This document shows positions 1,348 through 58,639 of a stretch of DNA of 64,000 nucleotides, piece after piece. The first letter of the stretch is position 1, and every line of letters starts with the position of its first letter. The notes below the pieces were generated by a model. It saw only the letters and a program-made list of their open reading frames with translations. It made no database searches and was not told where the DNA came from. Source of the stretch: Escherichia coli (GTDB taxonomy: Bacteria > Pseudomonadota > Gammaproteobacteria > Enterobacterales > Enterobacteriaceae); the NCBI RefSeq assembly GCF_003334305.1, contig NZ_QOWS01000006.1. The stretch is one strand, 5' to 3'. Position numbers and translations under genes: made by a program.

Positions 1348-2226
1348 ATGGCTGAAGCGCAAAATGATCCCCTGCTGCCGGGATACTCGTTTAACGCCCA
1401 TCTGGTGGCGGGTTTAACGCCGATTGAGGCCAACGGTTATCTCGATTTTTTTATCGACCGACCGCTGGGAATGAAAGGTTATATTCTCAATCTCACCATT
1501 CGCGGTCAGGGGGTGGTGAAAAATCAGGGACGAGAATTTGTCTGCCGACCGGGTGATATTTTGCTGTTCCCGCCAGGAGAGATTCATCACTACGGCCGTC
1601 ATCCGGAGGCTCGCGAATGGTATCACCAGTGGGTTTACTTTCGTCCGCGCGCCTACTGGCATGAATGGCTTAACTGGCCGTCAATATTTGCCAATACGGG
1701 TTTCTTTCGCCCGGATGAAGCGCACCAGCCGCATTTCAGCGACTTGTTTGGGCAAATCATTAACGCCGGGCAAGGGGAAGGGCGCTATTCGGAGCTGCTG
1801 GCGATAAATCTGCTTGAGCAATTGTTACTGCGGCGCATGGAAGCGATTAACGAGTCGCTCCATCCACCGATGGATAATCGGGTACGCGAGGCTTGTCAGT
1901 ACATCAGCGATCATCTTGCTGACAGCAATTTTGATATCGCCAGCGTCGCACAGCATGTTTGCCTGTCGCCGTCGCGTCTGTCACATCTTTTCCGCCAGCA
2001 GTTAGGGATTAGCGTCTTAAGCTGGCGCGAGGACCAACGCATTAGTCAGGCGAAGCTGCTTTTGAGCACCACCCGGATGCCTATCGCTACCGTCGGTCGC
2101 AATGTTGGTTTTGACGATCAACTCTATTTCTCGCGAGTATTTAAAAAATGCACCGGGGCCAGCCCGAGCGAGTTCCGTGCCGGTTGTGAAGAAAAAGTGA
2201 ATGATGTAGCCGTCAAGTTGTCATAA
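1348..2226 (+). CDS. araC: Arabinose operon regulator AraC (AraC/XylS family)
   Basis: 292-aa product [35 protein letters not shown]... Start is internal to ORF 1297..2226 at the ATG at 1348. Confidence 0.97.
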
Positions 2227-2311
2227 TTGGTAACGAATCAGACAATTGACGGCTTGACGGAGTAGCATAGGGTTTGCAGAATCCCTGCTTCGTCCATTTG
2301 ACAGGCACATT

Positions 2312-3076
2312 ATGCAAGCATTGCTGGAACACTTTATTACCCAATCCACCGTGTATTCATTGATGGCGGTGGTGTTGGTGGCCTTTCTGGAGTCGCTGGC
2401 GCTGGTCGGTTTGATTCTACCCGGTACGGTGCTGATGGCGGGGCTGGGAGCGCTGATTGGCAGCGGCGAGTTAAGTTTCTGGCACGCCTGGCTGGCAGGG
2501 ATCGTCGGTTGCCTGCTGGGCGACTGGATCTCCTTCTGGCTGGGCTGGCGTTTTAAAAAGCCGTTGCATCGCTGGTCATTTCTGAAGAAAAACAAAGCAT
2601 TACTCGATAAAACTGAACATGCGTTGCATCAACACAGCATGTTCACCATTCTGGTCGGTCGCTTTGTTGGCCCGACGCGTCCGCTGGTGCCAATGGTGGC
2701 GGGAATGCTGGATCTGCCGGTGGCAAAATTCATTACGCCGAATATTATCGGCTGCCTGCTGTGGCCACCGTTTTACTTCCTGCCTGGGATTCTGGCGGGC
2801 GCGGCGATCGATATTCCAGCCGGAATGCAGAGCGGCGAGTTTAAATGGTTGCTGCTGGCGACGGCGGTATTTTTGTGGGTTGGTGGCTGGCTGTGCTGGC
2901 GGTTATGGCGCAGCGGTAAAGCAACCGATCGTTTAAGTCATTATTTGTCGCGCGGCCGTTTGTTGTGGCTGACGCCGTTAATTTCTGCCATCGGCGTGGT
3001 GGCGCTGGTGGTGTTAATTCGCCACCCGTTGATGCCGGTGTATATCGATATTTTGCGTAAAGTGGTTGGGGGTTAG
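2312..3076 (+). CDS. yabI: DedA-family inner membrane protein YabI
   Basis: 254-aa hydrophobic protein MQALLEHFITQSTVYSLMAVVLVAFLESLALVGLILPGTVLMAG..., typical DedA/SNARE-associated fold. Confidence 0.9.
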   Translation: MQALLEHFITQSTVYSLMAVVLVAFLESLALVGLILPGTVLMAGLGALIGSGELSFWHAWLAGIVGCLLGDWISFWLGWRFKKPLHRWSFLKKNKALLDKTEHALHQHSMFTILVGRFVGPTRPLVPMVAGMLDLPVAKFITPNIIGCLLWPPFYFLPGILAGAAIDIPAGMQSGEFKWLLLATAVFLWVGGWLCWRLWRSGKATDRLSHYLSRGRLLWLTPLISAIGVVALVVLIRHPLMPVYIDILRKVVGG

Positions 3077-31725: not shown

Positions 31726-34114
<2,389 letters not shown>

Positions 34115-38497: not shown

Positions 38498-39178
<681 letters not shown>

Positions 39179-42700: not shown

Positions 42701-43444
42701 TTAGCAACAGGCCAGTTCGAAATCCAGACGTTCCGGTACCTGTCCGTTTTCAGTGTCCAGCGGCATAAAACGAATGGCAAAACGGCTCTTATGTCCGGAA
42801 ATTTGCGGATAAAGCTGTGAATCGAGCGACAGATTCAGGCGCAGCAAGTCGGCATCGCCACCGTTATCCTGATAAAAACCATTCAGGCTGGTTTGTTTAC
42901 GGAAGGGGGCCGACTGGCGAATTAAATCCAGCACCATGGTAAGTGCCTGGGTGAGCGGGTTCAGGCTGGCAATCCAGGTTTCTACCTGGCTGTCGCGCTG
43001 CGCCTGGGGTAGATGCAGCCAAATGTGCAATGTAGGTAAATCAAAGCTGCAACAGCCGCCTGGGATGCTCAGTCGCTGACGCACCAGAGCAATCAAACGA
43101 TCTTCACGCAGAAATTGCCCGATACGCGGCGCGGAAATTAATACGCTCCCCGCCGCTTTTAACTGCTGAATTAATGCTTCAATACGGCTCTGGTCCACGC
43201 CAGGCACGCCAATCCAGGTCTGGAGTTTACGTTGCTGCCGGTCAAGTTCTTTCAACAGCTCAGTGCGGACTTCGCCGCGCTCGAAAACATCCAGTAATTC
43301 ACTGACATTACGGAAGAAATGCAGCGCGCCAGCGTGGTCAACGATGGGTAAATTAACGGTGAGTTGCTGAATCAAAAACTCAATGCGCAGCCATGTACGC
43401 ATTTTTTCATTTAGTGGATGTTCAAAAAGGACCTGGGTCTGCAT
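42701..43444 (-). CDS. zapD: Cell division factor ZapD (YacF)
   Basis: 247 aa; [57 protein letters not shown]... Confidence 0.93.
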
Positions 43445-44064
43445 TACGGTTTTTCCTGTGAGACAAACTGCGACGCAAGCTGCAAATAGTGTGCGTGCAG
43501 GCGGGCAACATCCGATGCGATAGCATCCGGTGCGCCGTTATTATCAATGACGTCATCTGCCACGGCAAGGCGGGCTTCGCGCGTTGCCTGAGCAGCAAGG
43601 ATTTGTTCGACATGCTCGCGAGTTACATCATCGCGCTGCATGGTGCGCTTAAGTTGCGTTTCTGGGCTGACATCCACCACCAGCACTCGATTCGCTTTTT
43701 TATACAGTGAGTTTTCTACCAGCAATGGCACAACCCACAGTACATAGGGGGAAGTAGCTTGCTGGATCTGGTGTTGCGTCTCTTGCTGAATCAGCGGATG
43801 CAGCAGGGCGTTAAGCCAGTTTTTCTCTTCCGGGTTGGCGAAGATCCGCTCGCGCAAGGCCCGGCGCTGCAATGTTCCATCAGCAGCAATCATGTTAGCG
43901 CCAAAGTGATCAGCAATGGCATGTAGCGCAGGTGCACCTGGTTCAACCACCTGACGCGCAATAATATCGGCATCAATGACGTTAATTCCGAGATCAGCAA
44001 ACGCATTGGCAACGGTACTCTTGCCACTGCCAATGCCTCCCGTTAAGGCAACTATATACCTCAT
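43444..44064 (-). CDS. coaE: Dephospho-CoA kinase CoaE
   Basis: 206 aa; P-loop [38 protein letters not shown]...; overlaps zapD start by 1 nt. Confidence 0.95.
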
Positions 44065-44288
44065 AATTTATATTCCCGGGAATTCATCATGATTATCAAA
44101 ACGTTAAAAATGAGTGCACGAAAGCGAAATTGATGAAACGTTCGCTCACTATTTACCAGGTAAATTTATGGGATTGTAGCGTAAAAAAAGACAATTTCGC
44201 AGTCTTGCGCCGCATTGATTAGTGCGTATGATAGCGTCACTGGAGTTGCGCTCTTACCCTTATAGCCATTAACCCCAGGAATCCGCAC

Positions 44289-45332
44289 ATGCGTATTGAA
44301 GAAGATCTGAAGTTAGGTTTTAAAGACGTTCTCATCCGCCCTAAACGCTCCACTCTTAAAAGCCGTTCCGATGTTGAACTGGAACGTCAATTCACCTTCA
44401 AACATTCAGGTCAGAGCTGGTCCGGCGTGCCGATTATCGCCGCAAATATGGACACCGTAGGTACATTTTCTATGGCCTCTGCGCTGGCTTCTTTTGATAT
44501 TTTGACTGCTGTGCATAAACACTATTCTGTCGAAGAGTGGCAAGCGTTTATCAACAATTCTTCCGCTGATGTGCTGAAACATGTGATGGTTTCTACCGGT
44601 ACGTCTGATGCGGATTTCGAAAAAACTAAACAGATTCTCGACCTGAACCCGGCATTAAACTTCGTTTGTATTGATGTGGCGAATGGTTATTCCGAACACT
44701 TCGTGCAGTTCGTTGCGAAAGCGCGTGAAGCGTGGCCGACCAAAACCATTTGTGCGGGCAACGTAGTGACTGGTGAAATGTGTGAGGAGCTTATCCTCTC
44801 CGGTGCTGATATCGTTAAAGTTGGCATTGGCCCAGGTTCTGTTTGTACAACTCGTGTCAAAACAGGCGTCGGTTATCCGCAGCTTTCTGCGGTAATCGAA
44901 TGTGCCGATGCGGCGCACGGTCTGGGCGGAATGATCGTCAGCGACGGTGGCTGCACCACGCCGGGCGATGTCGCGAAAGCCTTTGGCGGCGGTGCCGATT
45001 TCGTCATGCTTGGCGGCATGCTGGCGGGCCACGAAGAGAGCGGCGGTCGCATCGTTGAGGAGAACGGCGAGAAATTTATGCTGTTCTACGGCATGAGCTC
45101 CGAGTCTGCGATGAAACGTCACGTTGGCGGCGTTGCGGAATATCGCGCAGCAGAAGGTAAAACCGTTAAGCTGCCGCTGCGAGGCCCGGTTGAAAATACC
45201 GCGCGTGATATTTTGGGCGGCTTGCGTTCAGCTTGTACATACGTTGGGGCTTCACGCCTGAAAGAACTGACCAAGCGCACCACGTTTATTCGGGTGCAGG
45301 AACAAGAAAACCGCATCTTCAACAACCTGTAA
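44289..45332 (+). CDS. guaC: GMP reductase GuaC
   Basis: 347 aa; [60 protein letters not shown]... (IMPDH/GMPR family). Confidence 0.96.
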
Positions 45333-58465: not shown

Positions 58466-58639
58466 TGGTAATCTCATGAATGTATTGAGGTTATTAGCGA
58501 ATAGACAAATCGGTTGCCGTTTGTTGTTTAAAAATTGTTAACAATTTTGTAAAATACCGACGGATAGAACGACCCGGTGGATAATGGGCGTCATAAAAAA
58601 AACGTCAGACCCGCCGGAGATAAATATATAGAGGTCATG

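Follow-up and report, generated by a model that had tools for sequence, protein, structure and literature searches.

The perfect 12-bp palindrome in front of the essential gene coaE in this stretch of E. coli DNA (64,000 nucleotides, hereafter called the window) is real and native but probably incidental, and we favor reading it as the ribosome-binding sites of coaE and of the small gene yacM placed back to back. It is best read as having no function as a palindrome and as an ordinary element that calls for no new mechanism. Direct reading of the sequence and a motif scan placed the exact palindrome ATTCCCGGGAAT at positions 44072-44083, as had been stated in the original prediction, and the next outward pair is T44071/T44084, where the symmetry ends. 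Seven bases (44065-44071) lie between it and the coaE start codon (ATG at 44064, minus strand), and its nearest base is position −8, in agreement with the distance of 8 bp given before. The strandless element holds a SmaI site (CCCGGG, 44075-44080) and overlaps an EcoRI site (GAATTC, 44080-44085). Both of the hexamers recognized previously are present, the supposedly EcoRI-like one being a true EcoRI site that shares one base with the SmaI site. Window positions equal K-12 coordinates minus 69155, and the palindrome corresponds to K-12 113227-113238.

The number of such palindromes in the window does not exceed chance. We found 18 perfect 12-bp palindromes, compared to 15.6 expected in random sequence and 19.5 ± 4.3 in first-order Markov simulations, indicating no window-wide enrichment. 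Searching the whole window for the motif with at most two mismatches gave three matches vs. 2.3 expected, which means no copies above the chance level. Three longer perfect palindromes are present elsewhere, one of 18 bp at 58531-58548 (AAAATTGTTAACAATTTT) and two of 16 bp at 38829-38844 (CCAAAGTTAACTTTGG) and 33586-33601 (AGCAGAAATTTCTGCT); with three observed vs. about one expected for lengths of at least 16 bp, these are statistically odder than the 12-mer at 44072-44083.

The identities and the divergent arrangement of the two flanking genes, as originally assigned, were borne out by the open reading frames and the RefSeq annotation: coaE (43444-44064, minus strand; annotated on the identical K-12 sequence) codes for dephospho-CoA kinase, and guaC (44289-45332, plus strand) codes for GMP reductase. 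The annotated gene yacM had been overlooked. It is a small ORF of 14 codons, MIIKTLKMSARKRN, located at 44089-44133 on the plus strand (RefSeq WP_120795372.1; K-12 113244-113288 according to Table 1 of PMC6001520). In the list of VanOrsdel et al., YacM is one of the small proteins that were seen on immunoblots by means of a chromosomal SPA tag, which was fused to the 3' end of the ORF and thereby preserved the native upstream sequence (PMC6001520). Five bases separate the right end of the palindrome from the start codon of yacM at 44089, which is arranged head-to-head with that of coaE, leaving a gap of 24 nt, and the palindrome represents the middle 12 of these 24 nt. Because yacM had been missed, it was also missed that each arm reads as a Shine-Dalgarno-like GGGA of one of the two head-to-head starts. 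The earlier description of the site as the coaE-guaC divergent promoter region is correct for the divergent spacer but loose with respect to the palindrome, which lies in the leader and ribosome-binding region of coaE and in neither core promoter. In strain MS20659, an IS30 element (positions 1779-3001 of locus L002) interrupts coaE after its second codon and before its third, equivalent to window position ~44058 and 13 nt left of the palindrome, with a 2-bp AC target duplication, and the annotated coaE start of this strain falls within the end of IS30. The annotation of the K-12 record NZ_CP047127.1 treats guaC (positions 1840-2883 of locus L001) as a pseudogene that contains an internal stop.

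The assignment of the left arm to the ribosome-binding site of coaE appears well supported by duplex energies and by the orthologous sequences. The GGGA tetramer read on the minus strand (44074-44077) precedes the AUG by 9 nt, which is within the usual Shine-Dalgarno range of ~5-10 nt, and its duplex with the anti-Shine-Dalgarno sequence at the 3' end of the 16S rRNA (−4.3 kcal/mol) is the best one within the 25 nt upstream of the AUG. The best anti-Shine-Dalgarno pairing upstream of coaE is found at the same place in most orthologues. Positions −13 to −10 of coaE read AGGA in 32 and GGGA in 16 cases, together 48 of the 65 distinct orthologues, which represent about 20 enterobacterial genera, and the tetramer keeps a fixed distance to the start codon while the bases flanking it vary. 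Because a conserved AGGA or GGGA at this position is the signature of a Shine-Dalgarno sequence, the left arm of the palindrome would be its complement.

The right arm probably represents the ribosome-binding site of yacM, for which the support is moderate. As read from the sequence, it contains a Shine-Dalgarno-like GGGA on the plus strand (44078-44081), which precedes the yacM AUG by 7 nt. The aligned column of the yacM start contains ATG or TTG in Escherichia, Citrobacter, Salmonella and Kluyvera, preceded by GGGA, GGAG or GGAA at 7-8 nt, and the distance between the coaE and yacM starts was 24 nt throughout the representative sequences of these four genera that we counted by hand. Enterobacter and Leclercia show no canonical start at the yacM column and still contain the GGGAA, which makes the case for a Shine-Dalgarno sequence weaker for the right arm than for the left. 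The yacM ORF also varies in length and sequence among the orthologues; together with its missing start in Enterobacter and Leclercia, this suggests that the conservation of the right arm may be partly inherited rather than selected. We infer that ribosomes use both GGGA tetramers. It counts against this model that GGGA is a weak Shine-Dalgarno sequence, as reflected by the duplex energy given above, and that the sole mapped plus-strand transcription start able to supply a yacM mRNA with the right arm, among the Cappable-seq entries covered here, is very weak (score 2.5).

Two GGGA tetramers abutting on opposite strands would automatically yield the core TCCCGGGA, the left arm being contributed by the complement of the coaE site and the right arm by the site serving yacM. 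This core would then be extended to 12 bp by two chance A/T pairs in the A/T-rich spacers between the Shine-Dalgarno sequences and the starts, a coincidence which we estimate at about 1 in 12 to 1 in 16. The elements resemble other Shine-Dalgarno sites of closely spaced divergent genes in consisting of a purine-rich GGGA that can pair with the 3' end of the 16S rRNA, 9 nt (coaE) or 7 nt (yacM) in front of the start, and in the conservation of the coaE copy at a fixed distance. They differ from these in abutting on opposite strands, which creates the palindrome, and in both being weak sites of 4 nt that involve a G-U wobble. A variant in which only the coaE site is functional, the right arm is neutral, yacM is translated independently of it and the palindrome is a mere coincidence, seems to us unlikely but well worth keeping in mind. 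It agrees with the chance rate of 12-bp palindromes in the window, with the poor conservation of the yacM ORF and with the very weak plus-strand start upstream of yacM among the Cappable-seq entries considered, as well as with the absence of YacM from the 13 small proteins that were also seen in a tetracycline ribosome-profiling screen (PMC6001520). However, it is at odds with the detection of tagged YacM behind its native upstream sequence and with the recurrence in four genera of a GGA-type motif that precedes the aligned start by 7-8 nt.

To compare the site among relatives, we searched with the CoaE protein in one genome per species and obtained 80 loci. In 75 of these, coaE and guaC are likewise divergent, with spacers mostly of 219-235 nt. 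An alignment of 59 spacers showed that the guaC-proximal half (~44155-44288) is almost invariant across the Enterobacteriaceae, whereas the coaE-proximal half is variable, the stable element of this variable half being a plus-strand TCC, which corresponds to GGA on the minus strand. As counted in the 65 distinct orthologous sequences, a palindrome of at least 6 bp is missing from the site in 41, and one of at least 10 bp is present in only seven. Within this set, E. coli, E. albertii and one Escherichia sp. are alone in having the 12-mer in its perfect form. The three remaining Escherichia sequences, from Escherichia sp. E1V33, E. whittamii and a divergent strain that bears the label E. coli (locus L006), contain ATTCCTGGGAAT. 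The same variant was found among the complete E. coli genomes in one natural isolate, GPEC505-623, in which the palindrome is broken; the change, C44077T, converts the coaE Shine-Dalgarno sequence to the canonical AGGA. Further versions of the site are TTCCGGAA in Salmonella, ATTCCAGGAAT in one strain of Citrobacter amalonaticus, ATCCTGGAG in the C. freundii group and ATCCCAAAAT in Kosakonia. Where a dyad exists, its half-sites are spaced by 0, 1 or 2 bp, which does not fit a conserved dimeric operator but is expected for two independent elements, each anchored to its own start codon.

The same comparison revealed other conserved or symmetrical elements in the spacer. The segment 44155-44250 (K-12 113310-113405) shows almost no variation among about 20 enterobacterial genera and is conserved far better than the coaE-proximal half; it includes the guaC core promoter as well as CCAGGTAAATTTATGGGATTGTAGCGTAAAAAAAG, which contains a minus-strand TACAAT and, at about −56 to −50 relative to the guaC start, an A7 tract. 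A motif ATCA-N5-TTAAA at 44086-44108 is conserved with or without a yacM start codon. A 13-bp palindrome, TTTGAT-W-ATCAAA, encloses the yacM start in Citrobacter and Salmonella, and E. coli retains only TGATTATCA of it. The motif at 44086-44108 is a better candidate for an operator than the 12-mer at 44072-44083. An inverted repeat, AGCGAA-N12-TTCGCT, surrounds GATGAAACGTTCGC at 44123-44146 and is found in Escherichia only. The AAACGTT at its center resembles the core of a PurR box, with a match at only ~9 of 16 positions.

For the transcription of guaC, the main promoter is TTGCGC-16-TATGAT (44205-44239, plus strand), with the start at 44239 (K-12 113394), which received a score of 961.7 among the Cappable-seq entries covered here (PMC4782308 supplement) and 2366 reads in the study of Kim et al. 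2012 (PMC3415461 supplement). The promoter block is nearly invariant across the Enterobacteriaceae in our spacer alignment. The same portion of the Cappable-seq data contains a secondary plus-strand start at K-12 113436 and the weak one mentioned above at K-12 113127 (window 43972; score 2.5), and its plus-strand entries show no start between K-12 113127 and 113394 (PMC4782308). On the minus strand, Kim et al. 2012 mapped the coaE start of K. pneumoniae just after a TACAAT in the conserved block (PMC3415461). The same TACAAT in the window (44178-44173) would serve as the −10 element of the E. coli coaE promoter (44167-44178), placing the start at ~44167 and giving a leader of ~103 nt. Such a leader would be antisense to yacM and contain the palindrome. 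A minor minus-strand start with 19 reads was reported at K-12 113199 (PMC3415461), corresponding to window position 44044, 20 nt into the coaE reading frame. The TATAGT that serves as the −10 element of this start (−12 to −7) is formed by coaE codons 3-5 and needs an ATA codon specific to E. coli; this start could feed zapD and yacG without coaE. The palindrome is located at −39 to −28 of this minor start (center −33.5). Relative to the main guaC start its center falls at about −161.5, and relative to the coaE start proposed here at about +89.5.

The palindrome had originally been considered as a possible regulator binding site, and we regard it as improbable that it is the operator through which a dimeric transcription factor acts on coaE, yacM or guaC. 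The perfect dyad symmetry in E. coli, the presence of some TCC-N(0-2)-GGA dyad in several genera and the location close to the −35 position of the minor start inside coaE speak for it, and the site shares a perfect 12-bp dyad and an intergenic location with the palindromic operators of dimeric helix-turn-helix regulators. In contrast to these, neither the half-sites nor their spacing are conserved, as evident from the 41 orthologues without a comparable palindrome, the spacing drifting between 0 and 2 bp and the natural E. coli isolate with a broken dyad, and the site is unusually placed with respect to the main promoters. Gao et al. 2021 investigated 40 candidate factors by ChIP-exo and reported two peaks in the coaE-guaC spacer, one of YiaU at K-12 113297-113336 over the conserved block and one of YqhC at K-12 113379-113405 over the guaC core promoter (PMC8464067). 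Both fall in the nearly invariant segment, at least 59 bp away from the palindrome, and do not overlap K-12 113227-113238. The window contains no additional copies of the motif above chance, and a full-text literature search for TTCCCGGGAA yielded no E. coli regulator, but only a Noc site of B. subtilis, eukaryotic STAT1 and primers. The closest known motif from this search was the 14-bp Noc-binding site of Bacillus subtilis with the consensus ATTTCCCGGGAAAT (PMC3020112, PMC7383237). Its inner 10 bp TTCCCGGGAA are identical to those of the palindrome, and 11 of 14 positions match if the flanks are included, whereas the E. coli palindrome is present as a single copy and is not conserved as a dyad. 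E. coli is not known to encode Noc and uses SlmA, which recognizes a different motif, so we take the match as a resemblance only. We attach very little weight to the idea that the 12-mer is bound as a dyad by some other dimeric protein, for which an uncharacterized regulator or, given the identity over 10 bp, a ParB/Noc-like protein encoded by a mobile element would be candidates. If it were true, the translation or transcription of coaE would be coupled to the divergent yacM. From the original interpretation, the gene identities, their divergence and the native state of the DNA are retained, but not the regulator binding site.

A role of the palindrome as part of a promoter is likewise hard to sustain and appears quite improbable to us. 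Shimada et al. 2014 predicted a constitutive sigma-70 promoter on the guaC side, TTTATA-18-GATTAT, which maps to 44067-44096 on the plus strand and has the palindrome as its 18-bp spacer, and the 19-read start at K-12 113199 with its TATAGT would alternatively place the palindrome in a −35 region on the minus strand. However, the predicted plus-strand promoter falls into the interval that is free of starts in the Cappable-seq plus-strand entries covered here, and a consensus scan of 43900-44400 showed no promoter-like site. The minor start has CCGGGA at its −35 position, which is unlike TTGACA, and its −10 element depends on a codon that is specific to E. coli. An RNA hairpin in the coaE leader which masks the Shine-Dalgarno sequence seems more improbable still, for although AUUC and GAAU pair in a local fold to give a 4-bp stem capped by a CCGG loop, the folding energies were no better than those of shuffled sequences (z = 0.04 for the whole leader, folded as 133 nt, and 0.49 for a local segment of 46 nt), and the arm changes among the orthologues are not compensatory. 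An Rfam search gave no match at E ≤ 1.

The overlapping SmaI and EcoRI sites had also raised the suspicion of a cloning scar or an engineered linker. Alignment to complete E. coli genomes leaves virtually no room for this explanation. The surrounding region of 451 bp is present in 5425 of 5426 genomes, with an identity of at least 99% in 5418 of them and of 100% in K-12, which confirms the previous impression that the flanking DNA is native; three of the 5426 region matches are located on records labelled as plasmids. The 70 bp centered on the palindrome are 100% identical in 5309 of the 5425 genomes, K-12 among them, from many hosts, indicating that the site was not engineered. Since E. albertii carries the palindrome as well, and the survey of complete E. 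coli genomes refutes a scar, we rejected this candidate.

Reading the palindrome as two abutting ribosome-binding sites would dispose of both a regulatory candidate and the suspicion of an engineered sequence in the coaE-guaC region. It also suggests caution when palindromes adjacent to start codons are scored as operators, because head-to-head starts about 24 nt apart can turn two ordinary ribosome-binding sites into a perfect palindrome.
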